This document shows, piece by piece, positions 627 through 29,137 of a DNA stretch of 32,000 bases (positions within the stretch are counted from its first letter, which is position 1; every line of letters starts with the position of its first letter). The notes beneath the pieces are model-generated. The model was not told the DNA's origin. It did not search any database and saw only the letters and a program-made list of their open reading frames with translations. Origin of the DNA: Synechococcus sp. A15-28 (GTDB taxonomy: Bacteria; Cyanobacteriota; Cyanobacteriia; PCC-6307; Cyanobiaceae); the NCBI RefSeq assembly GCF_014280175.1, contig NZ_CP047931.1, forward strand, positions 2,250,001-2,282,000, given 5' to 3'. The position numbers and the translations under genes were made by a program.

Positions 627-633
627 ATTCTGA

Positions 634-2156: not shown

Positions 2157-2206
2157 TGCTTAAACAGTGTTGGTTGACATGAAGAAGAAGGTTGTTTAAA
2201 AGCAAA

Positions 2207-3328: not shown

Positions 3329-3345
3329 GGTAAAAACCGTAGTAA

Positions 3346-4503: not shown

Positions 4504-4516
4504 CAGTACATGGGGT

Positions 4517-4545
4517 AAAAAAAAGGCCACAAGTTTATTGTGGCC
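4517..4545 (-). terminator. intrinsic terminator/attenuator immediately after urtA, before urtB
   Basis: On the minus strand the sequence reads GGCCACAA-TAAAC-TTGTGGCC followed by T8 (plus-strand A8 at 4517-4524). It sits 30 nt after the urtA stop and 14 nt before the urtB ATG. This is the classic arrangement that keeps the binding-protein transcript in excess. Confidence 0.65.
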
Positions 4546-4574
4546 CACTATTCAAAGAAATTCAGAAGTAACGA

Positions 4575-5882
4575 TTACATCTTGAACTTTCCGGCATCAG
4601 CACGATCAAGGGTCCAGTCGCACTTGTAGCCTTTGGTCTCAGGAACGTACTGGTTCCAAGTGATAGGAGGAACAGGGGTCTTGCTGTCCCAGAGAATCTC
4701 AAACTGACCATCCTCCTTAGCCTCACCAATCCGCACAGTCTGTGAGATGTGGTGATTGGGATACATCTCAATCGGACCCTGAGGAGCATCGAGCTTAATT
4801 CCGATCAGTGCATTCCGGACAGCATCCAGATCTTCATAAGTGCCAGCCTTCTCAACAGCAGCCTTCCAGAGGTAAACCATGTTGTAAGCCGACTCCATCG
4901 GATCGTTCGTCACACGATCATCACCGTACTCAGCAAGGAATGCTGAATTGAAGGTATCGGAGGCCGAGGATCCGAGGGACATGAAATAGTTCCAGGCCGC
5001 ATAAGTGCCGCCCACATACTCAGGTCCGATCTGACGGATCTCCTCCTCAGCGATGGAGAAGGACATGATCGGATACTTTTCCGGAGTAATTCCTGCTGCC
5101 TTGAACTGCTTGAACAGGGCAACGTTGGAATCACCGTTCAGAGTGTTGATGATGATTCCACCATCAGGGAACTCCTTCTTGATCTTGGCGATGATAGGTG
5201 CCACCTCAGTGTTGCCCAGAGGGATGTAGTCCTCACCGACTGTCTCACCACCCAGGCTCTTGACCTGCTCTTTGATGATGGTGTTAGCAGTTCTGGGGTA
5301 GACGTAGTCAGAACCAACCAAATAAACCTTCTTGCCGTACTTGTCGGCGAACTGCTCAAACAGCCAGTCAACAGCGGGCTCAGCCTGCTGGTTGGGGACA
5401 GCGCCGGTGTAGAAGATGTTCTTGGAGCACTCCTGACCTTCGTACTGAATTGGGTAGAAGAGGAAGTGATCCTTGGCTTCGTAAACCGGAAGCATTGCCT
5501 TCCGACTTGCGGATGTCCAGCCGCCAAACACAACGGCAACCTTATCGGCGTCGATCAGCTTCTGTGACTTCTCCGCGAAGGTAGGCCAATCTGAAGCACC
5601 ATCTTCAGAGGTGTAGGTGATCTTGTAGCTCTTGCCATCGATTTTGACGCCACCGTCGGCATTGATTTCCTTGATCGCCATCTCCTCGACTTCTTTTAGA
5701 GTCGTTTCGGAGATCGCCATCGTTCCGCTAAGGGAATGAAGGATGCCAACTTTGATTTCACCATCAAAATCTGCACCACCACCAGCGGAATCACCACTAT
5801 CTCCGCCACAGGCGGTCATTGTGACTCCCACTGTTGTGGCAGCGAAAGCAGCTAGCAGACGCTTCGTAAACGTTGAATTCAT
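4575..5882 (-). CDS. urtA: urea ABC transporter substrate-binding protein UrtA (probable lipoprotein)
   Basis: LivK-type periplasmic binding protein. ATG 5882 gives MNSTFTKRLLAAFAATTVGVTMTACGG, a signal peptide with a lipobox-like TAC. The track start at 5894 is a GTG four codons upstream. Confidence 0.9.
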   Translation of the reverse strand: MNSTFTKRLLAAFAATTVGVTMTACGGDSGDSAGGGADFDGEIKVGILHSLSGTMAISETTLKEVEEMAIKEINADGGVKIDGKSYKITYTSEDGASDWPTFAEKSQKLIDADKVAVVFGGWTSASRKAMLPVYEAKDHFLFYPIQYEGQECSKNIFYTGAVPNQQAEPAVDWLFEQFADKYGKKVYLVGSDYVYPRTANTIIKEQVKSLGGETVGEDYIPLGNTEVAPIIAKIKKEFPDGGIIINTLNGDSNVALFKQFKAAGITPEKYPIMSFSIAEEEIRQIGPEYVGGTYAAWNYFMSLGSSASDTFNSAFLAEYGDDRVTNDPMESAYNMVYLWKAAVEKAGTYEDLDAVRNALIGIKLDAPQGPIEMYPNHHISQTVRIGEAKEDGQFEILWDSKTPVPPITWNQYVPETKGYKCDWTLDRADAGKFKM

Positions 5883-5929
5883 GAAGAAAGACACACGGTG
5901 GATGAGACCGCCATGAGGGCGACATTAGA

Positions 5930-9408: not shown

Positions 9409-11118
9409 ATGCCCTACCGCATCTCCCGCCAGGCCTACGCCGAGACCTACGGACCCACCACCGGCGACCGGGTTCGCCTGGCCGACACCGAGCTGATCCT
9501 CGAAGTCGAGAAGGATTTCACCGTGTACGGCGACGAGGTGAAGTTCGGCGGCGGCAAGGTGATTCGCGATGGCATGGGCCAGTCCCAGACCCCTCGAGCC
9601 GAGGGCGCCGTCGACACGGTGATCACCAATGCTCTGATCCTGGATTGGTGGGGCATCGTCAAAGCCGATGTCGGACTGAAAGACGGCCGGATCGTGGGCA
9701 TCGGCAAAGCCGGCAACCCCGACACCCAGGAAGGGGTGACCATCGTGGTGGGCCCCGGCACCGAGGCGATCGCTGGGGAAGGTCACATCCTCACGGCCGG
9801 TGGCATCGACACCCACATCCACTTCATCTGCCCCCAGCAGATCGAAACAGCTCTGGCCAGTGGCGTCACCACCCTGATGGGAGGCGGCACTGGACCAGCC
9901 ACCGGCACCAACGCCACCACCTGCACCCCCGGCGCCTTCCACATCGGGCGAATGCTCCAGGCAGCGGAAGGCCTGCCGGTGAATCTGGGCTTCTTCGGCA
10001 AGGGCAACGCCAGCACCCCTGAAGCCCTGGAAGAACAGGTGCGCGCCGGCGCCTGCGGCTTGAAGCTGCATGAAGACTGGGGCACCACACCGGCAACGAT
10101 CGATGCCTGCCTGTCGGTGGCCGACCGGATGGATGTGCAGGTGTGCATCCACACCGACACCTTGAATGAAGCCGGCTTCGTGGAAGACACGATCGCCGCC
10201 ATCAAGGGACGCACCATTCACACCTTCCACACCGAAGGTGCCGGCGGCGGCCATGCACCGGACATCATCAAGATCTGCGGCAAAGCGAATGTGCTGCCAA
10301 GCAGCACCAACCCCACCCGGCCCTACACCCGCAACACGCTTGAGGAGCACCTCGACATGCTGATGGTGTGCCACCACCTCGATCCGAAGATCCCGGAAGA
10401 CGTGGCTTTTGCCGAATCGCGGATTCGCCGCGAAACGATCGCCGCCGAAGACATCCTTCACGACCTGGGCGCCTTCTCGATCATCGCCAGCGACTCCCAG
10501 GCCATGGGGCGCGTGGGCGAAGTGATCACCCGCACCTTCCAGACCGCCCACAAGATGAAGGTGCAGCGCGGTGCACTGCCGGAAGACTCCAACCGCAATG
10601 ACAACTATCGGCTGAAGCGCTACATCGCCAAGGTGACAATCAACCCCGCTCTTGCCCATGGCATCAGCAGCGAGGTGGGCTCGATCGAAACCGGCAAGCT
10701 CGCCGATCTCGTGCTGTGGAAGCCGGGCTTCTTCGGCATTCGCCCGGAACTGGTGGTGAAGGGCGGTTCGATCGTCTGGGCCCAGATGGGCGACGCCAAC
10801 GCCTCGATTCCCACCCCCGGCCCGGTGCACGGCCGGCCGATGTTCGGCGCCTTCGGCAAAGCCCTTGCCCCCAGTTGTCTTACCTTCGTGAGCGCAGCGG
10901 CGATGGATGCCGACATCCAACGTCAGCTGGGACTGGAGCGCACCTGCATGGCGGTGAAGGAGACCCGCAGCGTCGGCAAGAGCGCCCTCAAGCTGAATGC
11001 AGCGCTGCCCAAGGTGAGCGTGGATCCGCAGACCTATGAGGTGTTCGCCGACGGTGAGCTGCTCACCTGTGAGCCCGCCGAGGTGCTGCCCCTCGCCCAG
11101 CGCTACCTGCTGCTTTGA
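9409..11118 (+). CDS. ureC: urease subunit alpha UreC
   Basis: 569 aa with the active-site motifs [17 protein letters not shown] and MVCHHLD. Confidence 0.97.
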
Positions 11119-11223: not shown

Positions 11224-11237
11224 GTAGCAACTGCTAC
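11224..11237 (+). promoter_or_regulatory. consensus NtcA-type box GTA-N8-TAC within a 7+7 inverted repeat
   Basis: TGTAGCA-AC-TGCTACA spans 11223-11238, with perfect 7-bp arms and an exact GTAGCAACTGCTAC core. It lies in the ureC/DUF4278 intergenic region, 85 nt upstream of the DUF4278 ATG. Confidence 0.45.
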
Positions 11238-11240
11238 AGA

Positions 11241-11321
11241 CGTTCACCTTGCTTATTGAAGCAAGGCGCAGTTCGACTCAGGCCATGGAACGGGGACCTG
11301 AGCTTGCTTCGAGGAACCACC
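11241..11321 (+). promoter_or_regulatory. structured 5' leader, candidate glutamine-riboswitch-like (glnA / Downstream-peptide family) element
   Basis: CGTTCACC begins at 11241. Hairpin 1 is CCTTGCTT-ATTG-AAGCAAGG (11247-11266). Hairpin 2 is CTCAGG-(14 nt)-CCTGAG (11277-11302). Its loop contains GAACG (11288-11292), complementary to CGTTC (11241-11245), so a pseudoknot is possible. A second CTTGCTT copy (11303-11309), next to GAGGAA and the ATG, can pair alternatively with AAGCAAG. No covariance model was run. Confidence 0.35.
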
Positions 11322-11500: not shown

Positions 11501-12175
11501 TCAGGCCACAAGTCGGTTAAGCACGGGCAATTCCAGCAGTTCATCACGCCACTGCTGAGCCCACAGATCCTGACTGCGTTCGTAGAGCTCCATCAGCTCT
11601 TCGACCGCACCTGGGCGGAAATCAACCCGCAGATCCAGCAACGGAAATGCCGCTTCGCCGCTCACCTGCAGAGCGGCGGATGTGCAGCTTGATGCGCGTT
11701 GGTCGCCACCAGCCTGCTCTCCTGCCTGCAGGGCCGTCATCAAACGACGGCCCAGTTTCCAGTTGGGATCACTGGTGAGAAACGTCTGTTCCATCGCCTC
11801 CAGCACCACTTCGCCAGCCAGGCAATTTCCCGCAACCGAAAGGTTGGGATGGTGCCGATGACCCGCCCATCCGCCGCACTCAACTCCAGTCCAGCAAGCA
11901 GTCCGGCCATCAAGATCGATCAGATGGAACTGGCGCCAATCCCGTTGGGGGTCATCCAGCAGAAGGCTGTTCAGCACATCCTGCGCATCCGCATGATGTT
12001 CAAGACGCTCCAGGCCGCAAATTCCCAGATAAGGATTGGTGTGGGCTTGGGTTGCAACGGCACCTACTCCAGATCGGATGTGGGGAACAGTGGAGCCCAC
12101 AGCCAGGTGACAGGTCGCCACGGCAACGCCGAAACGACCGTTGTTGGGATCACGCGCCAGGATTGAGAAGGTCAA
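11501..12175 (-). CDS. DUF1028-family (Ntn-hydrolase-fold) protein
   Basis: It begins (TTG)-TFSILARDPNNGRFGVAVATCHLAVGSTVPHIRSGVGAVATQA, the hallmark DUF1028 N-terminus with Thr2 as the putative N-terminal nucleophile. The TTG start overlaps the upstream stop (TTGA). Confidence 0.8.
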   Translation of the reverse strand: MTFSILARDPNNGRFGVAVATCHLAVGSTVPHIRSGVGAVATQAHTNPYLGICGLERLEHHADAQDVLNSLLLDDPQRDWRQFHLIDLDGRTACWTGVECGGWAGHRHHPNLSVAGNCLAGEVVLEAMEQTFLTSDPNWKLGRRLMTALQAGEQAGGDQRASSCTSAALQVSGEAAFPLLDLRVDFRPGAVEELMELYERSQDLWAQQWRDELLELPVLNRLVA

Positions 12176-13452
12176 GACAGCTCGCGATCCAAACGCTGCA
12201 GAGTCCCCAGCAAGACGGCAGCCCCAGCCCAGCAGTGCTCGTCACTGGTGAATTCCTTGGATGAGTGGCTAAGCCCACCACGGCTGGGGACGAAAATCAT
12301 TCCCATCGGCCAGCGACGTCCGATCTCCTGCGCATCGTGACTGGCACGGCTGGGAAGGTGGCTATGCGACAACCCCAGATCCTCTGCAGCAGAAACGATC
12401 GCTGCCATCACTCCATCCGCTGCAGCTGTGGGTTCCACCTCAAATTGAGGTTCCAACTGGATCGGGCATCCGGTTTCGGCACCGATCCGCTCCACCTGCT
12501 GCATCAACTCAGCCACCAACTGATCGAGCACAACTGAATTCACATCCCGGAGGTCAACGGTCAGCGCCACTGAGCCAGGCACCACATTGGCGGCGTTGGG
12601 CCAGACCTCGAGTCGTCCGACTGTGGCAACGGGATCACCTGGGTGCTGTCTGGCCATCGTCTCCACCGCCAGCACGATCCGGGACGCCGCCACCAAAGCG
12701 TCTTGCCGCAGCTTCATCGGCGTGGTGCCGGCGTGGTTCGGCTGACCATCCACCTGGATGCTGAAACGGCGTTGTCCCACAACGCCCTCCACCACACCGA
12801 TGGCGTCACCGCGTTGCTCGAGCACGCCTCCCTGTTCCACATGGAGCTCGAGAAAAGCAGCACAGGCGTCGTCCGCCCGACGTGCTGAGACCAGCGATGG
12901 CCAGTGACCACCGATACGAGCGAGATTGTCCTCGATCGGTTCCCGATTGCTGGTGGCATAGGCCTTGGGGTCACAGGAAGCCGTACCGGCCATGCCCTTG
13001 CACCCGACCATCGTCGATTCCTCATCGGCGAAGGCGATCAACTCGAGATCGTGCTGAAGACGAATGCTGTTGTCCTGCAGGGAGCGACAAACTTCAAGAC
13101 CTGCCAAAACCCCCAACACACCGTCAAAACGACCACCGGTGGGAACGGTGTCGAGGTGGGAACCGGTCATCAGTGCTGGGCGATCCGGATCCAACCCCTG
13201 AAGCCGACCGATCAGGTTGCCCGCCGTATCGATCCGAACCTGAAGGCCAGCCTCGTTCATCCATCGGGCCAGCAAGGAACGTCCCGCAACGTCCTCAGTC
13301 GAGAAACCCCGTCGACAGACGCTGCCATCGGGCTGCAGCCCAATGGCAGCCATTTCAGCCAAGGAGTGCATCAGACGCTCACGGTTGGGTCGAATGCCCA
13401 CCTGTGCTTTCGACCGAGCAGTGACCTGGCGAGTGGTCAGGAGGGACGGCAA
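12172..13452 (-). CDS. M20-family hydantoinase/carbamoylase-type amidohydrolase (allantoate amidohydrolase / N-carbamoyl-L-amino-acid hydrolase / beta-ureidopropionase group)
   Basis: Contains GSHLDTVPTGGRFDGVLGVLAGLEV, FADEES and a C-terminal SHDA, the metal-ligand motifs of the AmaB/AllC group. Confidence 0.82.
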   Translation of the reverse strand: MPSLLTTRQVTARSKAQVGIRPNRERLMHSLAEMAAIGLQPDGSVCRRGFSTEDVAGRSLLARWMNEAGLQVRIDTAGNLIGRLQGLDPDRPALMTGSHLDTVPTGGRFDGVLGVLAGLEVCRSLQDNSIRLQHDLELIAFADEESTMVGCKGMAGTASCDPKAYATSNREPIEDNLARIGGHWPSLVSARRADDACAAFLELHVEQGGVLEQRGDAIGVVEGVVGQRRFSIQVDGQPNHAGTTPMKLRQDALVAASRIVLAVETMARQHPGDPVATVGRLEVWPNAANVVPGSVALTVDLRDVNSVVLDQLVAELMQQVERIGAETGCPIQLEPQFEVEPTAAADGVMAAIVSAAEDLGLSHSHLPSRASHDAQEIGRRWPMGMIFVPSRGGLSHSSKEFTSDEHCWAGAAVLLGTLQRLDRELS

Positions 13453-13547
13453 TGCAGTGGCCTTCAGATCAAAAGATCAGATCACCATCGCCGCAGCGAC
13501 CCAAACGGCCTGTCGTCAATGCGACGTTTTAACCCTCACCAAAGAAT

Positions 13548-15572
13548 TCAAACGGGCATCAGCACCCGCCACCCGAGGCGATCGGCCTGCTCACGAGCCT
13601 GGGCTGGCACATCGGCCGCTACAAACATCCGATGCAGCATCTGGACACCCAGGAGGTGGTTGATGACGGCATCCATCTGAACCCGCTCGGCGTCGGTGGT
13701 GGCAGGGTCGTCGTGGCGCGCAAACAAGGCACGCACGCCCTCTTTGCTCAACAACCCAGCCGCATCAATCGCTTCATCACTCAGGTAGTCATCAGCCAAC
13801 TGCTTCATTTGCGCCCACTTCTCGGGCTCGGTGTGGGCCGGGGGCGCCAGGAAGGCAAATTTTTCGCGCTTGTAAAGCACCTCCGGCAGCAGACCCGCCA
13901 TGGCCTCCCGCAGCACATATTTCTCAGTTTTTCCCTTGATCCGCAGCTCCGGAGGCACTTGTACCGCCGCAGCCGCCAGATGGTGATCCAGGAAAGCCGG
14001 CCGTGCCTCCATGGAGTTGGCCATGTCGACGCGATCACCTCCCCAGGTGAGGATCTGGCCTTCCAACATTGTTTTGATCCAGACGTACTGAGCCTTGTCG
14101 AGGGCATGGCGACCATCGAGTTGCTGGGGATTCAACTGCTCAGCAATGGCTTTACCTGGCGAGTACTCCACCAACGCCTGACGGTGCTCGTCAGCCAGCA
14201 GATCCGGCACCAGCGGCGCGCAGGCCAGCCAGGGCTGCAGACAGCTGGGGGTGAAGCCCACCACGGCATCAAGATCGGGATCATCCACCTGATCAGCCGC
14301 CAGCATTGCTCCCTGCACCAGGGAATTGTTGGTCTGCAGCAGAGACTCCCAATCATGGCGATCGCTCTGCGACAGGTCCTCCAGACCATGGAGGAACATG
14401 TCACGCCGGAACGCGGGATAGCCACCGAACAGCTCGTCTGACCCTTCCCCAGTCATCACGACTTTGTAGTCGACACTATTGACATGGCGACTCATTAAGT
14501 ATTTGGCCACAGCCAAGGTGTTGTAGATCGTGCGCTCGGTATGCCAGAGCGTTTGTTCCATGTGGCCGTACAACTCACGACCCGACAGACGCATGACGTC
14601 CTGCTCGGCACCGGTGGCCTCCGCCATCTCCGCAGCAATGGGTGTTTCGTCGTAGCGCGCATCATCGAATCCGATCGTGAACGCCTTGACGGGACCCTGA
14701 CTCACCGCCGAAGCAAGACCGAGGATCGAACAACTGTCGATTCCGCCTGAGAGATAACAACCCACGGGCACGTCGGCCACCATCCGCATCTCCACCGCTT
14801 CCAGCAGAGCAGCACGAACATTGGCGATGTGATCAGCCTCCGTGAGGGTGCTGTCCCGCTGATCCAAACGTGGAAAATCGACATCCCAGTAGGTCGACTC
14901 CGACACCTCCAGCCGGTCACTCCTGCGCTGCACCTTCAGCACATGACCAGGCTGAACTTGGTGCACCCCGGCGAAGGCGGTCGTTCCCGGGACCATGGTC
15001 TGCATCAACTGATGAAAGAGACCCTCCGACGTGAAGCGTCGCTCCACGGCCTGGTGAGCAAACAGCACCTTCAACTCGGAGCCGAACACCAACCCCTCCG
15101 GCGTCATCGTCCAGTACTGGGGCTTGATGCCGAAGCGATCCCTCACCAGATAGAGACAGTCATCCGCCGCATCAAACAGAGCAAAGGCGAATTCCCCCCG
15201 CAGCAGAGGCAACGTGGACTCGAGACCCTGCCGTTGATACAGGCGCAACAAAATCTCGGAATCACTCTTCGAGGAGAAACGCACTCCCTGGGCGGTGAGA
15301 TCAGCACGGATGCGCTGAAAGTCGTAGAACTCGCCGTTGTGCGCCATCAGCACCTGCCGGTCGTTGCTGAGAAACGGCTGACGTGCCCGGGATTCGTTCA
15401 GATCAATAATCGACAACCGGGCATGACAGAAGCCGACACCGGCTGCGTCGAGGCATTCCACACCGAAACCATCCGGTCCGCGATGGGACTGGATGGCCGC
15501 CATGTTGACCAACAGCTGGCGATCCAACGTCTGATGACGATCCGCCAGAAACACACCTCCGATTCCGCACAT
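13548..15572 (-). CDS. asparagine synthetase (glutamine-hydrolysing)-like amidotransferase, 674 aa
   Basis: Has the N-terminal MCGIGG (Cys2 Ntn glutaminase nucleophile) and the PP-loop SGGIDS (CYLSGGIDSCS). It is longer than E. coli AsnB. Confidence 0.85.
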   Translation of the reverse strand: MCGIGGVFLADRHQTLDRQLLVNMAAIQSHRGPDGFGVECLDAAGVGFCHARLSIIDLNESRARQPFLSNDRQVLMAHNGEFYDFQRIRADLTAQGVRFSSKSDSEILLRLYQRQGLESTLPLLRGEFAFALFDAADDCLYLVRDRFGIKPQYWTMTPEGLVFGSELKVLFAHQAVERRFTSEGLFHQLMQTMVPGTTAFAGVHQVQPGHVLKVQRRSDRLEVSESTYWDVDFPRLDQRDSTLTEADHIANVRAALLEAVEMRMVADVPVGCYLSGGIDSCSILGLASAVSQGPVKAFTIGFDDARYDETPIAAEMAEATGAEQDVMRLSGRELYGHMEQTLWHTERTIYNTLAVAKYLMSRHVNSVDYKVVMTGEGSDELFGGYPAFRRDMFLHGLEDLSQSDRHDWESLLQTNNSLVQGAMLAADQVDDPDLDAVVGFTPSCLQPWLACAPLVPDLLADEHRQALVEYSPGKAIAEQLNPQQLDGRHALDKAQYVWIKTMLEGQILTWGGDRVDMANSMEARPAFLDHHLAAAAVQVPPELRIKGKTEKYVLREAMAGLLPEVLYKREKFAFLAPPAHTEPEKWAQMKQLADDYLSDEAIDAAGLLSKEGVRALFARHDDPATTDAERVQMDAVINHLLGVQMLHRMFVAADVPAQAREQADRLGWRVLMPV

Positions 15573-15581
15573 CAGTTCGCC

Positions 15582-16769
15582 TCAGATCACATCCATCACG
15601 CGCTCGGCACGATTCACCATGCAGGTGAGCAGTGCCATGCGCACAAACACCGCCCCACGCGCCTGGCTGAAATACCAGTTGTGCGGCGTGTCATCGAGAC
15701 AGGTGCTCAGCTCAGGACCCCGGGCCAGGGGATGCAACACGATCGCCTCCGGCTTGAACGGCAGATCCCGGGTGAGACGAAATCCACCGCCGTGCACCTC
15801 GTAGCTGTCGCCAACCCAGGCAATCGCATTGATGTAGACGACATCCAGATCGGGAATCTCAGCAGCCAGATCTGAACTGCAGCGGATGGACATCCCGCTT
15901 GCTTCCAGTTCCTCCAGCTGGCCTGGATCAAACAAAGGCGCTTCCGACTCCATCTCGGGCGCATGGATCACCACCACCTCCTCCAGGATCTGGGGGAATT
16001 TGCTGAGGATCCGCAGCAGCGAACGCACGGTGCGCATCCGCGACGGCAAACCGATCACCCCGATGCGGATCCGATCCTTCGGGGAGTCCTCTTTCGAAGC
16101 AAGGCTTGGACGCCATTTGAACATCGTGTAGAGATCCGCCATCGCCTGTGTCGGATGCTCATCAATGCCATTACCGGCATTGATGATCGGAATCCGCAGG
16201 GTGGAACTCATGGCGTACACGGCCTCCGGATTGCTGTCGCGCAGCACCACGCAGTCGCCGTAGTTGTTGAACATGTGCGCCACGTCTTCGAGCGACTCCC
16301 CCTTGGCGATGCCGGTGGTGCTGCGATCGGTGATGTTGATCGAATCACCGCCGAGGCGATGCCAGGCGCTGTCGAAGGAAAGGCGTGTGCGCGTGCTGGG
16401 CTCGTAGAACGCGTTGATCAGGATCTTGCCGGTGAGCGGCGTGTTGTGCCGGCAGTAACGGTCTGGGTTGCTCTCGAATTTCGCCGCCAGTCGAAACAAC
16501 TGGAGCAGGGTTTCAGCACGAAATGCCTGAATCGACACCACGTGTTGATCGACAAGATCCACCAACGGCTCACCGTCTTCAGCGATTGCGGCCAAAAGCT
16601 CCTGCGGCTGATTGTGGCCGAACACATCAGGACCCATCGGCTGGAAGCGGAGCGGCGCCGAAGCCTCCTCGATCACGGCTGTGTGGGGTTGTGCCATAAG
16701 CATTTGCATCAACACCCGATTTGCCAGATCGCGTGATGTGCCATGAATCACATCATCCTTCGCTAACAA
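15582..16769 (-). CDS. aspartate/ornithine carbamoyltransferase-fold protein, atypical (unknown second substrate)
   Basis: Carries the carbamoyl-phosphate motifs STRTR and HPTQ and the ATCase-like HPLAR. The ATCase aspartate-loop motif (TRVQKER) is replaced by INAIAWVG. The start is uncertain: TTG 16769, or ATG 16709/16703/16697. Its stop lies 9 nt before the AsnB-like ATG. Confidence 0.75.
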   Translation of the reverse strand: MLAKDDVIHGTSRDLANRVLMQMLMAQPHTAVIEEASAPLRFQPMGPDVFGHNQPQELLAAIAEDGEPLVDLVDQHVVSIQAFRAETLLQLFRLAAKFESNPDRYCRHNTPLTGKILINAFYEPSTRTRLSFDSAWHRLGGDSINITDRSTTGIAKGESLEDVAHMFNNYGDCVVLRDSNPEAVYAMSSTLRIPIINAGNGIDEHPTQAMADLYTMFKWRPSLASKEDSPKDRIRIGVIGLPSRMRTVRSLLRILSKFPQILEEVVVIHAPEMESEAPLFDPGQLEELEASGMSIRCSSDLAAEIPDLDVVYINAIAWVGDSYEVHGGGFRLTRDLPFKPEAIVLHPLARGPELSTCLDDTPHNWYFSQARGAVFVRMALLTCMVNRAERVMDVI

Positions 16770-16873
16770 CGAACCAGCACCCCTGACCAGCTTAAAAGAA
16801 GTTCTTTATACAAATAACTGGCAAATAGTTCGAATGAATACCAAATCCGCCGCAAATTGTTCACTTTGAACAT

Positions 16874-17020
16874 TCACCAGACGCGTCCATTGCGCCACTC
16901 AAACCACCAAATCACCAGCAATGCGAGCACAGAACAGACGAGCGCCACCTGGCTTCCCACCAGGACCAGACCGAACCAGTGTTGATCCACCAGAACCGTG
17001 AGCAGCAACGCATTGGCCAT
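16874..17020 (-). CDS. unannotated 48-aa hydrophobic ORF immediately downstream of the symporter
   Basis: An ATG 5 nt after the symporter stop gives MANALLLTVLVDQHWFGLVLVGSQVALVCSVLALLVIWWFEWRNGRVW*. It is too short for the ORF track. GC-rich codons and a hydrophobic profile are the only support. Confidence 0.35.
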   Translation of the reverse strand: MANALLLTVLVDQHWFGLVLVGSQVALVCSVLALLVIWWFEWRNGRVW

Positions 17021-17025
17021 GGCGT

Positions 17026-18456
17026 TCACACCCCCTCTTGCAGACGATTGAAATCAAACCCTTCCGGCTGCCAGCGGCTGCCCACCACCATCACGACAGC
17101 CGAAACGGCTGCGGAGAACACTGCCGCGCAATAGGGAGCAATCAGAACGTAAGCCGATAGTCCGACGGCACTGCCGGCTGCCATGGCGACGATCGCTGCC
17201 CAACGATTGGCAGAAGACCAGTAGAGACCGCAAGCCACAGGCCAGACCGTGGAGGCCACCAACGCACCGGTGAAGAACAGCACCGACGCCAACGAATCCA
17301 GTCGCGGCCAGGACAGGGCCAGGGTGAGAACAGACAGGCCAACCACCATCTGCCGGGCCGCCTGCTTGAGCTGTGCATCGCTCGCCTGAGGGCGCAGCAG
17401 ACGGAAATAGACGTCTTCCGCCAGCAGATCCGCCGTGGACGCCAACAGCGAATCCAGGGTGGAGGTGAGTGACGCGAAGACCACCACAAACACCAGTGCC
17501 GCCCCACCAGCCCCCAGAAGATCGGCCGCCATTACAGGGAACACCATGTTCACCTGCTCCAGCGGCAGGTCCCTGGCCAGCGCCACCAGACCGATCGATC
17601 CCGTCACCAGGGGGATACTCATCCAGGCCAATCCCCCCAAGACAAACGAGGTCATCACCACACTGCGCCGGCTGGCGAACACCCGCGACCACCAGATGTT
17701 GTTGTGAAAGACTTCACCCATCGAGAACAGGGCGGAATTCCAGGCGATCAGCAGACCAGCCGGAAGCAAGAGATCCAGCCGGTCAGGGTGCGTACTGATC
17801 AAGCGAGCATGCACCACCGGCATCGGGAACTGACGGAACGCCAGCACCGCCACCACCGCCAGCAACACCATGATCAGCAGCGACTGGATGAAATCGGTTC
17901 CGATCACTGCCCGCATGCCGCCGAACAGGGTGTAAACGGTGGCGACGCCGATCACCACCACCATGCCTACGTGGTAATCGAAGCCGGAGAGCGCCTGAAG
18001 CAACAGACCGGCCCCCATGGCCTGGGTCATCAGAAAACCGAGGGTGTACACAGCGGTGATCACCATGAACACCCACCACGCCAGGCGCCCGTAACGCAAC
18101 CGGATGAAATCGCCACTGGTGCGGCCATGCGGCATCAGCTGCTTGATCCGCACGGCCAGCGGCGCGAACAGGATCAAGCCCAGACCGGCCAGGGCATAAC
18201 TGAACATGCCCCAAAGACCAGTCCTGTAGCCGAATTCCGGAGCCAGCAGTGTGGTGTTTCCGGTCACCCAGGAGGCCATCAGCGTGGCCGTGCTCAACGC
18301 CAACCCGATGTTGCGTCCGGCCAGCATGTAGTCGTCGGCATCTCCTTTACCGCGGCGGCCCCAGACGATCCCCAAGGCGATCCACAGCACGGAAAACAAC
18401 ACAACCAGGGCCCAGGCGATGCCAGGCGCCAGAAAAGGTGCGGCGTCAGCAGGCAT
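17026..18456 (-). CDS. sodium:solute symporter (SSS) family transporter
   Basis: Polytopic protein of about 476 aa with the SSS-like N-terminal region DDYMLAGRNIGLALSTATLMASWVTGNTTLL. The start is either ATG 18456 (MPADAAPF) or GTG 18474. Confidence 0.85.
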   Translation of the reverse strand: MPADAAPFLAPGIAWALVVLFSVLWIALGIVWGRRGKGDADDYMLAGRNIGLALSTATLMASWVTGNTTLLAPEFGYRTGLWGMFSYALAGLGLILFAPLAVRIKQLMPHGRTSGDFIRLRYGRLAWWVFMVITAVYTLGFLMTQAMGAGLLLQALSGFDYHVGMVVVIGVATVYTLFGGMRAVIGTDFIQSLLIMVLLAVVAVLAFRQFPMPVVHARLISTHPDRLDLLLPAGLLIAWNSALFSMGEVFHNNIWWSRVFASRRSVVMTSFVLGGLAWMSIPLVTGSIGLVALARDLPLEQVNMVFPVMAADLLGAGGAALVFVVVFASLTSTLDSLLASTADLLAEDVYFRLLRPQASDAQLKQAARQMVVGLSVLTLALSWPRLDSLASVLFFTGALVASTVWPVACGLYWSSANRWAAIVAMAAGSAVGLSAYVLIAPYCAAVFSAAVSAVVMVVGSRWQPEGFDFNRLQEGV

Positions 18457-18571
18457 CGACCGACCCCCGATCACGCCAGTGCAGATGGCCCTGAATGATC
18501 ATCGCCACCGTTGCCAGGGTCACCGCAGCACCGAGGGCAAAGACCAGTCCAGCCCAGAGATTGTCATCCAA
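18446..18571 (-). CDS. unannotated 41-aa single-TM ORF overlapping the symporter start
   Basis: TTG 18571, preceded by GAGGAG 7 nt upstream, gives (M)DDNLWAGLVFALGAAVTLATVAMIIQGHLHWRDRGSVDAC*. Its last codons contain the symporter ATG (GATGCCTGCTGA). Confidence 0.35.
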   Translation of the reverse strand: MDDNLWAGLVFALGAAVTLATVAMIIQGHLHWRDRGSVDAC

Positions 18572-18705
18572 AGCGAATCTCCTCTTCAGCAGATCTCAGA
18601 CAAGCAAATCGCGGTGTTCTCGAGCTTGCATTCACGAATAACAAGTCGCTGGCGCTACCCAAATCACAGGCTGTCAGTGCACTGATGCCTTCAATCTCGA
18701 AATGT

Positions 18706-18719
18706 GTAGCAATCACAAC
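18706..18719. promoter_or_regulatory. NtcA-like half-consensus box GTAGCAATCACAAC (GTN10AC)
   Basis: It lies in the divergent intergenic region between the symporter operon and the ATP-grasp gene. It shares the TGTAGCAA half-site with the box at 11224. No TAN3T sits at the canonical 22-nt spacing on either strand. Confidence 0.2.
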
Positions 18720-18769
18720 CCGCGGGGCCCTGATCGAGTTTTTGGATGCGCCTATTCATCGTTCAGGCA

Positions 18770-20242
18770 ATGTTCACCGAGTACCGACCAACCCATGGGT
18801 ACGACGAATATTTTTGCCGTGAACAGTCCGCTCCCCGCGCTGATCTGGAGCCGCTGCTGTCCTCCCTTGGAGCCATGGGGCTGGCGGAACTGAATCGCAG
18901 TCATGCATCAGCGAGCAATCTGTTGCGACGTCTTGGCGCCACCTTCCGACTCAACGGATCAGGTCTGCATGGCGGAGAGCGGATCCTTCCCTTCGATCCA
19001 CTGCCAAGACTCATTCACCGTCAGGAATGGTCCGTTCTGGAGCGCGGATTGGTGCAACGCCTGGAGGCCATTGATCAGTTTCTGGCGGACGTTTATGGAC
19101 CCCAACGGATCCTCAACGATGGCGTGATCCCCCGTGAGGATGTGGAGAGCTCCCAGGGCTGGCGGCCCCAGATGCAGGACATAGCCGTGCCGCTCAACCG
19201 CTGGTGCCACATCTCAGGTCTGGATCTGATCCGCGATGGCGACGGCACCTGGAGGGTTCTGGAGGACAACCTGCGCTGCCCCTCCGGCGTGGCTTATTTC
19301 CTTGAGAACCGTCGGGTGATGAAGCGGTTGTTCCCCAGCCTGTTCCAAGGGCGAACCGTGCAGCCGATCGACGATTACCCCTCCCATCTCTTGCGCACGT
19401 TGCGTGATCTGGCTCCTTGGAGTGATGCCCCACGGGTGGTGCTGCTCACCCCCGGCGTGTTCAACAGCGCCTACTTCGAGCACAGCTATCTGGCCCAGCA
19501 GATGGGCATTGCCCTTGTGGAAGGCCGCGATCTGATCTGTGAAGACGGACGCGTCTGGATGCGCAGCACGGCCGGTCGGGAACCTGTGGATGTGATCTAC
19601 CGGCGCATCGATGACGATTTCCTCGATCCGAACGTGTTCCGACGCGATTCGATGCTCGGTGTCCCCGGCCTCATCGATGCCATGCGCTCCGTTCGGGTGG
19701 CCATCGCCAACGCCCCTGGGAGCGGTGTCGCTGACGACAAGCTGATCTATGCCTACGTGCCGGCCATGATCCGTTACTACCTCAACGAAGAACCGATCAT
19801 CGACAACGTCCCCACCTATCTCTGCTCAAGGGACGACGACCGCCGTTATGTGCTCGAACATCTCAACGAACTGGTAGTAAAATCAGCCGCCGAGGCAGGC
19901 GGCTACGGAATGTTGATCGGGCCCCATGCCAGTTCTGAGGAGATTGAGAGCTTCGCGGTGAAGATCAAGGCTCACCCGCGCAATTTCATCGCCCAGCCCA
20001 CCCTGCAGTTATCCACAGTTCCATCCCTGAGCGAAGGGGAGCTGTACCCCTGCCATGTGGATCTGCGCCCCTACGTGCTCCGGGGTAAAAGCGACTGGGT
20101 CAGCCCCGGCGGCTTGACTCGTGTAGCCCTGAAACGCGGTTCCCTTGTGGTGAACTCCTCCCAGGGGGGCGGCTGCAAGGACACCTGGGTGGTCAGCGAC
20201 AGTGCCGTAACGGCTGGCAATCAGGAGCTCGTGCCGTGCTGA
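18770..20242 (+). CDS. circularly permuted ATP-grasp (type 2) family protein
   Basis: The start MFTEYRPTHGYDEYF and the 490-aa architecture match the CP-ATP-grasp proteins that precede Alpha-E and transglutaminase genes. The stop overlaps the next gene's start. Confidence 0.82.
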   Translation: MFTEYRPTHGYDEYFCREQSAPRADLEPLLSSLGAMGLAELNRSHASASNLLRRLGATFRLNGSGLHGGERILPFDPLPRLIHRQEWSVLERGLVQRLEAIDQFLADVYGPQRILNDGVIPREDVESSQGWRPQMQDIAVPLNRWCHISGLDLIRDGDGTWRVLEDNLRCPSGVAYFLENRRVMKRLFPSLFQGRTVQPIDDYPSHLLRTLRDLAPWSDAPRVVLLTPGVFNSAYFEHSYLAQQMGIALVEGRDLICEDGRVWMRSTAGREPVDVIYRRIDDDFLDPNVFRRDSMLGVPGLIDAMRSVRVAIANAPGSGVADDKLIYAYVPAMIRYYLNEEPIIDNVPTYLCSRDDDRRYVLEHLNELVVKSAAEAGGYGMLIGPHASSEEIESFAVKIKAHPRNFIAQPTLQLSTVPSLSEGELYPCHVDLRPYVLRGKSDWVSPGGLTRVALKRGSLVVNSSQGGGCKDTWVVSDSAVTAGNQELVPC

Positions 20243-21219
20243 GCCGTGTGGCCGATTCGCTGTACTGGATCAACCGGTATGTCGAGCGGGCCGAAAACAT
20301 CTCCCGGTTTCTGGAAGTGAGCGAAGCCATGGCCCTGGATTGCCCCCCCGGCAGCGCTGAGCCCTGGCTTCCCCTGGTGGATGCCAATGGGGACCGCAAG
20401 CGGTTTGACGAGGCCTATCCCCAGGGCACACCACGGGACGTCGTCAGCTTTCTACTGCTGGATCGCGATAACCCCAACAGCATCGTGAGTTGCATAGCCA
20501 ACGCCCGTGAGAACGCTCGCCAAATCCGCGATGTGATCACCACGGAAATGTGGGAGCAGCTCAATGACCTCTATTGGAACGTTCAAGACGGTGAGGCGCT
20601 CTGGCAGGAGCCGGATCAAGAACAGCTGCGCAGCATCCGACGCGGATGTCAGCTCTTCTACGGCATCACGGACGTGACCCTCAGTCGTGATCAAGCCTGG
20701 CTGTTCAGCCAGCTGGGACGGCTGATCGAACGGGCGGACAAAACCTCCCGCATCCTCGATGTGAAGTACTTCCTGCTGTTGCCAACGCCAACGGAGGTGG
20801 GCGGCGTTCTCGATGAATTGCAGTGGATCTCACTGCTTCGAACAGCTGGGGCTTATCAGATGTATCGCCAGAGCGTGCAGCAGGCGATAACACCAACATC
20901 AGTGGCACAATTCCTGCTCCTGGATCTGATCTTTCCCCGTTCGGTTCGCTTCTGCCTGCAACAGATCAACGAGACGTTGCAACGCATTCAAGGGAAACCC
21001 CACGCCGGCCCACCGGATGACCTGGAATGCCTGGGCGGTCAGTTGCTGGCCCAATGGAGCTACGTCCGCATCGATGCTCTGATCGAACGCGGACTGCATG
21101 AGGCCATCGATCAACTGCAAAGCGATCTGAACCGGCTGCATGGCCTAATCCACCGTTGCTATTTCACCACCACCGACCTGGGCTCCATCCCCACCGACCC
21201 GTCATGCGCGCTGAGCTGA
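20236..21219 (+). CDS. Alpha-E domain protein
   Basis: A GTG start gives MLSRVADSLYWINRYVERAENISRFLEV, the characteristic Alpha-E N-terminus. It overlaps the ATP-grasp stop by 7 nt. Confidence 0.82.
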   Translation: MLSRVADSLYWINRYVERAENISRFLEVSEAMALDCPPGSAEPWLPLVDANGDRKRFDEAYPQGTPRDVVSFLLLDRDNPNSIVSCIANARENARQIRDVITTEMWEQLNDLYWNVQDGEALWQEPDQEQLRSIRRGCQLFYGITDVTLSRDQAWLFSQLGRLIERADKTSRILDVKYFLLLPTPTEVGGVLDELQWISLLRTAGAYQMYRQSVQQAITPTSVAQFLLLDLIFPRSVRFCLQQINETLQRIQGKPHAGPPDDLECLGGQLLAQWSYVRIDALIERGLHEAIDQLQSDLNRLHGLIHRCYFTTTDLGSIPTDPSCALS

Positions 21220-22103
21220 CCCATTGCCTCACGTACCGCTACGAGGCTCCGGTGCAGCTCGGAGAACACCGCCTCTGTCTGCGGCCCCGGGCCCAGGGTC
21301 ATCAACGGCTGATCCACCACACACTGCAGATCAAACCGGACCCCTTACACAGCCATGAGCTGTTGGCCGCCAGTGGCGATGCGATCGAGCGCGTGCGCTT
21401 CCGAGGCAGCACCGATTTGCTGCAGCTCGAAGCCAGGAGCTTGGTGGAAACCCGGCAGGCCGCACCGCTGCTCACCTGTTTCAACGGACTTGAACCCTCG
21501 CTTCCCTATCCGCGCGGTCTGCTGAACCACGACCTGCTGGGGGCTCTGGAAGGGTGGCTGCCCAACGGTCAACACGACCCCTCAGCTGTGGAACTGGCGC
21601 AGGACGCTCTGATGGGAAGCAATCAGCAGGTGCTGCTTTTTCTCCAGCAACTGATGGAGATGATCCAGGACCGGGTCAAGTACACCCAGCGCCATGTTGG
21701 CCCAGCCTGGCCAGCGGGCCGGACCCTGCGGGAGCGTGTGGGCTCATGCCGTGATCTGGCAATGCTAATGATGGAGTGCTGCCGCAGCGTGGGGCTGCCG
21801 GCTCGGTTTGTGAGTGGTTACCACCTAGCCGAACCAGCACCCGAGACCTACGACCTGCACGCCTGGACCGAGATCTATCTGCCAGGTGCCGGCTGGCGCG
21901 GTTTTGATCCCAGTGCTGGTGGTGAAATCACCTCGCGTTACATCGTGCTCGCCAGTTCCTCTAAACCGGATCTCAGTGCAGCGGTTCAGGGAAGCTTTAC
22001 AGGACCCCCAGCAACGACAAGCCACCTGAGCTGGACCATTGACGCCGATGTAGAACCTCGAACGATCGCTTCGTGCAGCCAAACCATGGTTCAGGCCGCC
22101 TGA
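21204..22103 (+). CDS. transglutaminase-like cysteine peptidase family protein (with N-terminal bacterial transglutaminase-N region)
   Basis: Starts MRAELTHCLTYRYEAPV. The catalytic-triad context is GSCRDLAMLMMECC (Cys), HAWTEIYLPGAGW (His) and GFDPS (Asp). It overlaps the Alpha-E gene by 16 nt. Confidence 0.82.
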   Translation: MRAELTHCLTYRYEAPVQLGEHRLCLRPRAQGHQRLIHHTLQIKPDPLHSHELLAASGDAIERVRFRGSTDLLQLEARSLVETRQAAPLLTCFNGLEPSLPYPRGLLNHDLLGALEGWLPNGQHDPSAVELAQDALMGSNQQVLLFLQQLMEMIQDRVKYTQRHVGPAWPAGRTLRERVGSCRDLAMLMMECCRSVGLPARFVSGYHLAEPAPETYDLHAWTEIYLPGAGWRGFDPSAGGEITSRYIVLASSSKPDLSAAVQGSFTGPPATTSHLSWTIDADVEPRTIASCSQTMVQAA

Positions 22104-22666
22104 AGCAGCGGCTCGACACCATGGAGACTGGGAGGCGGAGCCTGAAACGAGGTGACCGCCAACAGCGCTGGAATGCGGGCACTGTTGTAGACGCGGAATT
22201 CCTGCACCAACGACACCCCCTCCTCCCGGACCGCCTGGTTGAGAACAACCGAACCGTCGGGATCCGACACCGACCGGTGAAACGTACCGGGCGGGATGCG
22301 CAGGATGTCGCCGCCACTATCGAGTCGCACGATGTGGAACGGCTGATCCCAGGCCAGGTTGACAAGATAAAAGGTTCGCCCACCACTGGCGGCCAGAAGA
22401 TTGTCTTCCTGGTGCGGATGGAGATAGAACTGCCAGGCCCCGCTGTCGGGATCATTGGGTGGACTGGTGGCCGGGCCACTGTGGATCACCAGATCGCGGG
22501 CATTGGAGGTGTCCACCGTGACGTCGAAAAAACGCACCGCTGGTGTGTCGCGGAAGCGTTCGTAGGCCAGCAGTTCAAACATCTCCAGGGGCGTGACAAA
22601 GCCCGAGCTCTGAGACGGTTGTACTGGGGTTATCCGAGCAAAACGGTGACGATGGCAACGGTTCAA
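22091..22666 (-). CDS. conserved hypothetical protein (possibly a beta-barrel/cupin-like fold; weak)
   Basis: A 191-aa ORF with host-like GC. The TTG start overlaps the moaA stop (TTGA); ATG 22582 (MFELLAYERF) is an alternative start. I recognise no motif with confidence. Confidence 0.45.
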   Translation of the reverse strand: MNRCHRHRFARITPVQPSQSSGFVTPLEMFELLAYERFRDTPAVRFFDVTVDTSNARDLVIHSGPATSPPNDPDSGAWQFYLHPHQEDNLLAASGGRTFYLVNLAWDQPFHIVRLDSGGDILRIPPGTFHRSVSDPDGSVVLNQAVREEGVSLVQEFRVYNSARIPALLAVTSFQAPPPSLHGVEPLLQAA

Positions 22667-24278: not shown

Positions 24279-24427
24279 CGCGCAATGTCTCCAGCCATCA
24301 TTGATTCCACCTCAGCAAAACCCATTCCCCGCGGTGACAACCGCTACCAAGCAAAAACTGAACGCGGATGCTGATCAATCGGATAAGCCCAAGCGATGTT
24401 CCTTTCATCACACAAACCCTTCCATTG

Positions 24428-24441: not shown

Positions 24442-24558
24442 GAAGTCGTTCCCTGTTGATTGATTAACTGCCCGAGTTAACGGATTTTTTTCGACCGTTT
24501 CGCCACCCACGGGCACCCTTTCGTTTTGAAGCCCGCGGTTTCAACATTTCTCCTCTCA

Positions 24559-26099
24559 ATGCTTGGCGACCTCTGGTCGTTCCAGGGCAGGTACCGAACC
24601 CTTCACCTCACCTGGATCGCCTTCTTCCTGACCTTTGTGGTCTGGTTCAACCTGGCCCCTCTGGCCACCACCGTGAAAGCGGACCTGGGACTGACCGTTG
24701 GTCAGATCCGCACAGTGGCCATCTGCAACGTGGCCCTCACCATTCCTGCGCGCGTGCTGATCGGCATGCTCCTCGACAAGTTCGGACCCCGGATCACCTA
24801 CTCGTCGATCCTGGTGTTCTCAGCGATTCCCTGCCTGCTGTTTGCCTCCGCTCAGGACTTCAACCAGCTGGTGGTGGCCCGTCTGCTGCTCTCCATTGTT
24901 GGCGCCGGCTTCGTGATCGGCATCCGCATGGTGGCCGAATGGTTCCCGCCTAAGGAAATCGGCCTGGCTGAAGGCATCTACGGCGGCTGGGGCAACTTCG
25001 GCTCCGCCTTCTCCGCCCTCACGATGGTTGCCCTCGCTGGCTTCCTCTCCTTCTCCGGCGGCTTCGAACTGCCCACCGGCGCTGTTCTGAACTGGCGTGG
25101 TGCCATCTCCCTCACCGGCATCGTCTCCGCCGTTTACGGCCTCTTCTATTTCTTCAACGTCACCGACACCCCCCCGGCAAGACCTATCAGCGCCCTGAGA
25201 AAACCGCAGGCCTGGAGGTCACCTCCATGCGCGACCTCTGGGGTCTGCTCGGCATGAACGTGCCCTTCGCAGCCATCCTCTGCGTGCTCTGCTGGCGTCT
25301 CGGCAAGGTGGGCTTCCTGACTCCGTCCACCTACCCACTGGCTCTCGGGGCTGTTGCCGTCTGGTTTGCTTTCCAGACCTGGGGAATCATTCGCACCAAC
25401 CGCGACCTGATCCTCGGCAACAAGGTCTATCCAAAGGAAGACCGCTACGAGTTCCGCCAGGTAGCGATCCTCGAGCTCACCTACATCGTGAACTTCGGCT
25501 CCGAGCTGGCCGTGGTTTCGATGCTGCCCACCTTCTTTGAAACCACCTTCGATCTGCCGAAGGCCACCGCCGGAATCCTGGCCTCCTGCTTTGCTTTCGT
25601 GAACCTGGTTGCCCGCCCTGCCGGTGGTCTGATCTCCGACAGCCTCGGCAGCCGCAAGAACACCATGGGCTTCCTCACCGCCGGTCTCGGCGTGGGCTAC
25701 CTGGTGATGAGCATGATCAAGCCCGGCACCTTTACCGGCACCACCGGCATCGCCGTTGCCGTGGTGATCACCATGCTCGCCTCCTTCTTCGTGCAGTCCG
25801 GTGAAGGCGCCACCTTCGCGCTGGTGCCCCTCGTCAAGCGTCGCGTCACCGGTCAGGTGGCCGGCCTGGTGGGTGCCTACGGCAACGTTGGTGCTGTGAC
25901 CTACCTGACCATCTTCAGCCTTCTGCCGATGTGGATGGGCGGCGGCGGCGAACCCACCCCCGAGGTGATCGCGGCTTCCAACAGCGCCTTCTTCCAGATC
26001 CTGGGCGTGGCCGGTCTGATCGTGGCCTTCTTCTGCTTCTTCTTCCTCAAGGAGCCCAAGGGATCTTTCGCGGAACTGCATGAAGGCGAAACCGCCTGA
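24559..26099 (+). pseudogene. nrtP: nitrate/nitrite MFS permease NrtP (NapA), reading frame broken by a 1-nt shift in a C7 run
   Basis: Two adjacent track ORFs (24526..25257 and 25227..26099) are the N- and C-halves of one MFS permease. Frame 1 reads ...FFNVTDTPP, then nonsense, then a stop at 25257. From 25176 the other frame reads GKTYQRPEKTAGLEVTSMRDLWGLLGMNVPF... One extra C in the run at 25169-25175 would give a continuous protein of about 513 aa. Confidence 0.85.
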
Positions 26100-28862: not shown

Positions 28863-29137
28863 TCAGAACGCCGAATGGTGTCAATGATGACAACCCCGGA
28901 CGCGCAAAACAGCGATGTTCATTTTGTTACAGAGACAGGTCAGTGCGCTTCGCCATCTCCCTCGGAATGTTGCTCGGCATGTCCCACGGTTGGGTGACCG
29001 CTGAGGGACGAGCAAGCACCAACTCAGACCTGTTCGAAGTGTTAAAAACCGTTAAATCAACGACAACTTTTTCTCCTTTCAGTAGCGGTCAACACCAATT
29101 CTTTCCATACTGAAACTCAATACGTGAGTTTTGAGTC

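Follow-up and report, generated by a model that had tools for sequence, protein, structure and literature searches.

The circularly permuted ATP-grasp ligase, the Alpha-E protein and a transglutaminase-like Cys-His-Asp enzyme are encoded by three neighbouring genes, here called the triad. This is the neighbourhood that Iyer, Abhiman, Burroughs and Aravind described in 2009 and, when joined by Anbu, the 'Anbu operon' of Valas and Bourne 2008, both as summarised in PMC5666114 and PMC6376114. In this study the copy found in a 32,000-nucleotide (nt) stretch of Synechococcus sp. A15-28 (assembly GCF_014280175.1, contig NZ_CP047931.1, positions 2,250,001 to 2,282,000 of the forward strand), referred to as the window, was compared with its relatives. 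The triad is an already known and uncharacterised system, of which the window copy is an intact orthologue, and its link to nitrogen is probably real.

The only biochemistry found in the literature concerns the Yersinia bercovieri ATP-grasp protein, for which Piasecka et al. reported the release of phosphate from ATP; they found neither peptidase activity of Anbu nor stable complexes between the operon proteins (PMC6376114). Fuchs et al. 2017 regarded the physiological substrates and interactors as still a key task (PMC5666114). That the system has no experimentally defined substrate, as an earlier note on this DNA stated, agrees with the literature searchable up to 2026, a body which did not include Iyer 2009.

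Homologous operons have been connected with nitrogen supply. Anbu is up in nitrogen-limited Pseudomonas putida (Hervas 2008, as cited in PMC5666114), and the P. putida genes PP_2685 and PP_2688 are raised 22-fold and 16-fold (log2 4.44 and 3.99) on nitrate versus ammonium, their promoters being candidate nitrogen-starvation sensors (PMC8050072). The Burkholderia cenocepacia genes I35_5080-83 (DUF404/407, DUF403 and two transglutaminase-like proteins) are among the most strongly NtrC/sigma-54-dependent ones (PMC5491218). Across marine metagenomes the domains DUF403, DUF404, DUF407 and Bact_transglu_N vary together with those of urea metabolism (PMC3597751), which is explained by the position of ureC next to the triad described below. 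In a Microcystis field study a 'transglutaminase family protein', whose orthology to the window gene is unchecked, falls after nitrogen addition (PMC13485200).

The triad genes and their products

The three genes are as follows.

18770..20242, plus strand: circularly permuted ATP-grasp ligase, 490 amino acids, alternative start at 18746
20236..21219, plus strand: Alpha-E protein, 327 amino acids, GTG start
21204..22103, plus strand: transglutaminase-like Cys-His-Asp enzyme, 299 amino acids, longer open reading frame (ORF) start at 21156

The ORFs and direct reading of the sequence agree with the earlier description of three overlapping plus-strand genes. The GTG of the Alpha-E gene at 20236 precedes the TGA of the ATP-grasp gene (20240-20242), giving an overlap of 7 nt, and the ATG of the transglutaminase gene at 21204 precedes the TGA of the Alpha-E gene (21217-21219), giving an overlap of 16 nt. 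The ATP-grasp start at 18770 is favoured over that at 18746, because the latter ATG falls within a -10-like hexamer and because it is the 490-amino-acid form that is annotated in the closest complete genome.

The ATP-grasp protein matches PF14403 (CP_ATPgrasp_2) over all of the model (positions 1-374 of 374, E 1.3e-165, 551 bits, cutoff 32) and PF04174 (CP_ATPgrasp_1; E 1.6e-143, 478 bits, cutoff 23.1). Its closest solved homologue is PDB 3N6X, deposited as 'putative glutathionylspermidine synthase', residues 36-474 of which match residues 38-477 of the window protein with E 1.6e-154. The Alpha-E protein covers the complete PF04168 model (positions 1-294 of 294, E 6.5e-99, 331.8 bits, cutoff 20.8), and its two ER motifs, E17-R18 and E165-R166, are invariant in an alignment of 24 sequences (A2). 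No solved homologue of Alpha-E was found in the PDB by single-sequence and profile searches. The AlphaFold2 model, calculated from alignment A2, which contains close homologues only (at least 74% identical), is all-helical and of low confidence, with a mean predicted local distance difference test (pLDDT) score of 49.9.

The third protein matches PF08379 (Bact_transglu_N; E 3e-17, 63.4 bits) and PF01841 (Transglut_core; E 1e-19, 71.3 bits). The Cys, His and Asp contexts, which had been thought intact on first reading, proved so: GSCRD, HAWTE and GFDPS align column for column with GVCRD, HACFE and FDAT of PDB 3ISR, and likewise with GFCAH, HAWVE and VDPT of Pseudomonas aeruginosa TgpA (PDB 6G49). 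No NCBIfam model matches any of the three triad proteins; the Pfam families and the gene order bear out the assignment to the predicted ATP-grasp/Alpha-E/transglutaminase triad.

The upstream region and its NtcA-type box

Two elements precede the ATP-grasp gene.

18706-18719, plus strand: NtcA-type box GTAGCAATCACAAC (GTA-N8-AAC), 64 nt 5' of the ATP-grasp ATG
18742..18747, plus strand: -10-like hexamer TTGGAT, 22 nt 3' of the box

The box is the GTAGCAA-type element that had been noticed upstream of the triad. Taken alone it is weak evidence, because the half-canonical pattern occurs at 0.75 per kb in the window, both strands counted; the comparison with relatives makes it much stronger. Of 33 species-level picocyanobacterial loci, 31 carry a GTA-N8-NAC box at -80 to -55 relative to the ATP-grasp start; these boxes comprise 25 different sequences, and across the 300-nt upstream regions the pattern matches only once more. 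Shuffled upstream sequences gave a box in a mean of 0.68 loci and at most in 5. In an alignment of 21 upstream regions (A1, mean identity 41%) six columns only are invariant, namely one T, the GTA of the box and its AC. In Synechococcus and Cyanobium the box ends in AAC or CAC (GTA-N8-[A/C]AC), and every Prochlorococcus locus inspected has the perfect GTA-N8-TAC.

The 22-nt spacing and the -10-like element recur in relatives as NNGGAT (TTGGAT, CAGGAT), CATGAT and, in Prochlorococcus, TAAAA(A/G). Neither a sigma-70 consensus promoter nor a -35 consensus was found in the triad upstream region, as is expected because the promoter would be activator-dependent. The distance from the box to the ATP-grasp start is constant irrespective of the gene upstream (divergent SSF, ureC, GATase or unrelated), and therefore the box belongs to the triad; it persists even in Prochlorococcus, in which the triad has lost its urease and nitrate neighbours. 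Boxes of the same GTAGC...AAC type stand before nrtP (GTAGCAATTCCAAC at 24428) and urtA (GTAGCTGTTGCAAC at 6008), both of which are classical NtcA targets.

In class II NtcA-activated cyanobacterial promoters GTA-N8-TAC is followed, after about 22 nt, by TAN3T. The triad upstream region resembles them in its GTA-N8-NAC box, in the -10-like hexamer 22 nt on and in having no -35 element, and the box is canonical in Prochlorococcus; the region differs in the AAC or CAC right half-site of Synechococcus and Cyanobium and in the weak -10 element of the window (TTGGAT). Judged by this layout, the region looks like an NtcA-activated promoter, to which NtcA would bind to induce the operon, and the predicted control of the triad by nitrogen status is well supported.

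Other boxes of the window were also considered. The GTA-N8-TAC at 11224 was rejected as the box of the triad; it goes with the unit formed by a Glutamine-II riboswitch and a DUF4278 gene. This element, GTAGCAACTGCTAC (11224-11237), is palindromic and is the sole perfect GTA-N8-TAC in the window. The riboswitch (11238-11302, 72.9 bits) follows it directly on the 3' side, both lying 5' of the DUF4278 gene, and the pair looks like a double nitrogen sensor, transcriptional plus riboswitch. Two intergenic boxes of the GTAGC type, GTAGCGGTTGTCAC (24334-24347, minus strand), 69 nt 5' of mobA, and GTAGCGGTCAACAC (29082-29095, plus strand), between narM and a carbonic-anhydrase-like gene, may extend NtcA control to the molybdenum cofactor (Moco) genes.

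Gene neighbourhood in the window and in relatives

The remaining genes of the window are listed in their order.

1-5900, minus strand: urtEDCBA, urea ABC (ATP-binding cassette) transporter
next in order, minus strand: ureGFE
next in order, plus strand: ureDABC, with ureC at 9409..11118
3' of the Glutamine-II riboswitch, plus strand: small DUF4278 gene
11501-18474, all minus strand: DUF1028, M20 amidohydrolase, AsnB-like, ATCase-like (aspartate carbamoyltransferase-like) and SSF symporter genes
next in order: the triad (plus strand) and a gene for a 163-amino-acid protein (minus strand)
3' of the 163-amino-acid gene: moaA and mobA (minus strand), nrtP and narB (plus strand), narM (minus strand)
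last in order, plus strand: carbonic-anhydrase-like gene, moaC and moeA

An exact-sequence look-up of the Alpha-E protein led to the complete 2.47-Mb genome GCA_014280015.1, which encodes a 100% identical protein and has the gene order of the window. The same look-up with the ATP-grasp protein gave no entry for either start; its counterpart in Synechococcus sp. WH 8017 shares 98% identity with it. All window proteins were compared by tblastn with 80 species-representative loci retrieved with the ATP-grasp protein. In about 20 genomes of Synechococcus, Cyanobium and Vulcanococcus the triad lies directly 3' of ureDABC, and ureC is its ancestral neighbour. A five-gene asnB/pyrB2 block parts ureC from the triad only in the window and in three to four close relatives (loci L001, L007, L009 and partly L008). 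The triad had been placed between a cluster for nitrogen compounds and the Moco/nitrate genes; both neighbours are as described, but a strict position between two fixed clusters does not hold, the upstream cluster being an insertion in some lineages. The survey of cyanobacterial neighbourhoods that the earlier note had proposed thus found the triad order and the urease adjacency conserved and the block insertion lineage-limited. The same note had taken a lack of nitrogen-dependent expression, together with a location not conserved in relatives, as speaking against its proposal; both the box and the urease adjacency are conserved in them.

The minus-strand block matches the asnB-pyrB2-pydC niche-related nitrogen cluster of Dore et al. 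2023 (PMC10119275). Its M20 amidohydrolase is closest to N-carbamyl-L-glutamate and allantoate amidohydrolases. A second box, GTAGCGCCAGCGAC (18645-18658, minus strand), faces this divergent operon and is conserved in position in exactly those loci that have the asnB-pyrB2-pydC block.

Additional genes accompany the triad in other lineages. Some Synechococcus genomes, but not the window, have a gene for a class-I GATase/Peptidase_C26 inserted after ureC and before the triad. In many genomes of the Cyanobium type the triad is followed by glycogen phosphorylase (GlgP), DUF2126 and the convergent 163-amino-acid gene, in this order; the stand-alone DUF2126 protein is a 'putative amidoligase' of 697 amino acids, and the glycogen phosphorylase gene often precedes it. 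Marine Synechococcus, the window included, has lost the DUF2126 and glycogen phosphorylase genes. The positions of these genes are given below.

L087 12550-13302, L009 1223-1966 and L010 9105-9851: Peptidase_C26 (gamma-glutamyl-hydrolase-like) genes
L011 13415-17951, also L012, L013, L015, L016, L018, L021-L023 and L026: DUF2126 loci

In Prochlorococcus HLII the triad is found among unrelated genes (ZnuA, CobW, WD40, pentapeptide and PfkB). Forty-six non-cyanobacterial loci and about 35 cyanobacterial ones share the gene order ATP-grasp, Alpha-E, transglutaminase, and all-against-all clustering of the ORFs in the 46 non-cyanobacterial loci revealed no recurrent neighbour beyond the triad, nor one of the size of Anbu. 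The expanded locus of Marinobacter contains Peptidase_Mx, a triad with the transglutaminase fused to DUF2126, a second transglutaminase gene and an ATP-grasp-Alpha-E fusion of 834 amino acids. Relatives also add an M19 dipeptidase. The window and the approximately 80 inspected loci closest to the ATP-grasp protein showed neither Anbu nor another self-compartmentalising protease; the remaining long window ORFs regarded as genes fall into families other than Anbu. Compared with the Anbu operon, the window has the order of the triad and no fourth gene for Anbu, the position of which is taken by the convergent 163-amino-acid gene.

Other observations concern the flanking nitrogen genes. The urt genes have 41-45% G+C compared to about 60% in the remainder of the window, and their products share only 53-78% identity with the proteins of relatives in which UreG is about 90% identical; because of this low G+C and low identity, a horizontal acquisition or replacement of the urt operon is suggested. 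The nrtP gene is split into two ORFs (24526..25257 and 25227..26099) by a 1-nt deletion in a poly-C tract (25160-25180), which is C7 in the window versus C8 in the near-identical genome L001 with its intact 513-amino-acid protein; the split may be a pseudogene, phase variation or a homopolymer sequencing error. An Rfam match to '5_ureB_sRNA' (166 bits, 9564-9850, minus strand) lies antisense within ureC. This family was defined in Helicobacter, and the match is probably due to conserved urease coding sequence and not to a real small RNA.

The histidine-rich neighbour gene

The gene next to the triad is convergent with the transglutaminase gene.

22091..22582, minus strand: candidate accessory gene for a His-rich protein of 163 amino acids

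Its extent was set to 22091..22582 because conservation of the longer ORF (22091..22666) begins only at the MFELL start. In marine Synechococcus it overlaps the 3' end of the transglutaminase gene by about 13 nt. In almost all picocyanobacterial loci it adjoins the module or is near it: in Prochlorococcus HLII it lies directly 3' of the module on the same strand, in Cyanobium it abuts DUF2126, and where an insertion parts it from moaA it stays with the triad. This linkage is suggestive of a function shared with the triad, although it is not a proof.

The protein has no Pfam or NCBIfam match, nor a PDB match in single-sequence and profile searches, and its family comprises 209 representatives among 1.84 billion proteins. 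H34, H55, H102, Q58 and D60 are among the invariant residues. The annotations of the homologues conflict ('redox protein', 'hemagglutinin', 'cupin type-1 domain', RmlC-like and 'dTDP-4-dehydrorhamnose 3,5-epimerase'), and the AlphaFold2 model, calculated from an alignment (A3) containing only homologues at least 66% identical, has a mean pLDDT of 36.3. The protein was rejected as a universal fourth member of the system: distant homologues in Anaerosphaera and in a genome of 8.6 Mb are not beside a triad, and the linkage is therefore lineage-specific.

Homologues of this protein also occur in 43 cyanophage genome records, mostly of Synechococcus and Prochlorococcus phages, under the labels 'hn hemagglutinin', 'redox protein' or 'dTDP-4-dehydrorhamnose 3,5-epimerase'. 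One such copy is placed among small phage genes. The cyanophage homologue is a host-like phage gene.

Comparison with described systems

The window triad shares with the Anbu operon the same three domains in the same order, the tight coupling of the genes and an intact Cys-His-Asp set, and homologous operons are tied to nitrogen limitation (PMC8050072, PMC5491218). It differs in that it and the closest 80 loci are without Anbu, a proteasome-beta-like Ntn hydrolase, in being apparently under NtcA instead of NtrC/sigma-54, and in the picocyanobacteria-specific His-rich neighbour. The core triad is common to the window and to the proteobacterial and Cyanobium versions with DUF2126, a gene which the window and its marine Synechococcus relatives do not have. 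Compared to Marinobacter, the window contains neither the second ATP-grasp-Alpha-E fusion nor the second transglutaminase gene and represents a minimal version.

In Escherichia coli glutathionylspermidine synthetase/amidase (Gss) an ATP-grasp-type synthetase and a papain-like CHAP amidase act on one conjugate. The likeness would consist in the pairing of an ATP-dependent amide synthetase with a Cys-His thiol amidase, to which the deposited name of 3N6X may be added. In the triad, unlike in Gss, the predicted activities are on separate proteins, the ATP-grasp domain is circularly permuted, an extra Alpha-E protein would be needed, and the putative amidase has a transglutaminase fold with Bact_transglu_N in place of CHAP; nothing points to glutathione or spermidine as substrates of the triad.

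Proposed mechanism and alternatives

The gene identities, the catalytic residues, the operon structure, the conserved box and the urease linkage were observed, and the model starts from them. We hold it reasonably probable that the triad is a translationally coupled, NtcA-activated operon in which a ligase, its Alpha-E partner and a thiol amidase or transferase act on one conjugate. NtcA would activate the operon under nitrogen limitation, and therefore the operon should be induced when nitrogen is limiting. The ATP-grasp enzyme would spend ATP on turning a carboxylate into an acyl-phosphate and then join it to an amine, the chemistry of its glutathione-synthetase- and glutathionylspermidine-synthetase-like relatives. 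Alpha-E, which is fused to ATP-grasp in other bacteria, would be its obligate helical partner and probably binds or presents the substrate. The transglutaminase-like enzyme, of papain fold with an intact Cys-His-Asp triad, would most likely hydrolyse or transfer a bond of the kind the ligase makes, probably one of gamma-glutamyl type. Ligase and amidase would then form a synthetase/amidase pair on one conjugate, comparable with the two halves of E. coli Gss or with PafA and Dop in pupylation. The role linked to nitrogen status that the earlier note had put forward is supported by the box in 31 of 33 loci, by the urease adjacency kept in relatives and by the dependence of homologous operons in P. 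putida and B. cenocepacia on NtrC and nitrogen limitation. The example given in that note, the turnover or modification of a nitrogen-rich polymer or protein, is speculative.

As to the class of substrate, we lean towards a small amide-linked nitrogen compound or a short peptide used in nitrogen scavenging, in preference to a protein tag, because the nearest relative of the ligase with a solved structure falls in the small-molecule ligase branch, because relatives add genes for a GS-like amidoligase, Peptidase_C26 and dipeptidase, and because the picocyanobacterial lineage has no linked protease or tag gene. Tagging of proteins is nevertheless what Iyer et al. 2009 first predicted (summarised in PMC5666114 and PMC6376114). 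In such a pupylation-like process ATP-grasp and Alpha-E would modify protein side chains with an amino acid or a small peptide, or join protein carboxylates to lysines, the transglutaminase-like enzyme would remove or remodel the isopeptide, and the proteins so marked would be turned over to recycle nitrogen in starvation. Control by nitrogen limitation would suit a starvation-induced protein turnover. Transglutaminase-fold enzymes act on gamma-glutamyl-lysine isopeptides, and this activity, together with the intact catalytic triad, favours tagging, as do the many proteobacterial triads that are co-operonic with the proteasome homologue Anbu, itself induced under nitrogen limitation (PMC5666114, PMC8050072). 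We consider tagging a serious rival but rather unlikely all the same, since the window and the inspected loci contain neither Anbu nor another compartmentalised protease, no small tag gene is conserved beside the triad, the solved ligase relative is of the small-molecule branch, and stable complexes and peptidase activity were not found by others (PMC6376114). The most specific version of the small-substrate reading appears improbable to us; in it the triad and the 163-amino-acid protein would constitute one NtcA-controlled pathway making and cleaving a gamma-glutamyl or ureido-type amide on a small organic nitrogen compound, a hitherto unrecognised scavenging or buffering route with evolutionary ties to urease, whose last component cyanophages would have borrowed.

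The linkage to nitrogen genes could also be inherited synteny only, with the triad in a housekeeping or stress role and the box no functional NtcA site. Such a view is consistent with the non-canonical GTA-N8-[A/C]AC of Synechococcus and Cyanobium, but the core of the box is invariant between flanks that have diverged to about 41% identity, the box tracks the ATP-grasp start and is perfect in Prochlorococcus, and its non-canonical type is that found before the classical NtcA targets nrtP and urtA in the window. The synteny view draws further on the unrelated ZnuA, CobW, WD40 and pentapeptide genes around the triad in Prochlorococcus HLII, on the missing conserved nitrogen-gene neighbour outside cyanobacteria and on the picocyanobacterial nitrogen-cluster survey, the available part of which does not mention the triad (PMC10119275). 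Given that induction by nitrogen limitation has been reported independently in two proteobacterial genera (PMC8050072, PMC5491218), mere synteny seems very improbable.

Several points weigh against the NtcA-controlled synthetase/amidase model. The name of 3N6X is a structural-genomics label with no assay result behind it. The box of the window is the non-canonical GTA-N8-AAC, and the activator geometry, with the box centre near -41.5, is assumed. A search of the accessible literature found no transcript, NtcA-binding or enzymatic data for cyanobacterial copies. Others looked for substrates, peptidase activity and complexes of the proteobacterial homologues without success (PMC6376114, PMC5666114). 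It is only the neighbourhoods of other lineages that favour a small molecule over a protein tag, the window being without DUF2126, C26 and dipeptidase genes.

Significance

Very many kinds of bacteria carry the module; the formation or removal of amide tags was predicted for it in 2008-2009, and its substrate has not been found since. New here are promoter evidence for the nitrogen link throughout picocyanobacteria, the ancestral urease adjacency and the lineage-specific partner gene. The picocyanobacterial triad is stripped down, being without Anbu and, in marine Synechococcus, without DUF2126. The box, present from Cyanobium to Prochlorococcus, the urease adjacency and the partner gene narrow both the conditions (nitrogen limitation, NtcA) and the organisms for a substrate hunt. 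The long-standing question of the role of the triad is not solved by this, and picocyanobacteria offer a clean setting in which it can be tested. If the triad does not act in nitrogen scavenging, the finding amounts simply to the right identification of an orthologue in a system already known but uncharacterised. If it does so in the most abundant marine phototrophs, an unrecognised step would be added to ocean nitrogen cycling.

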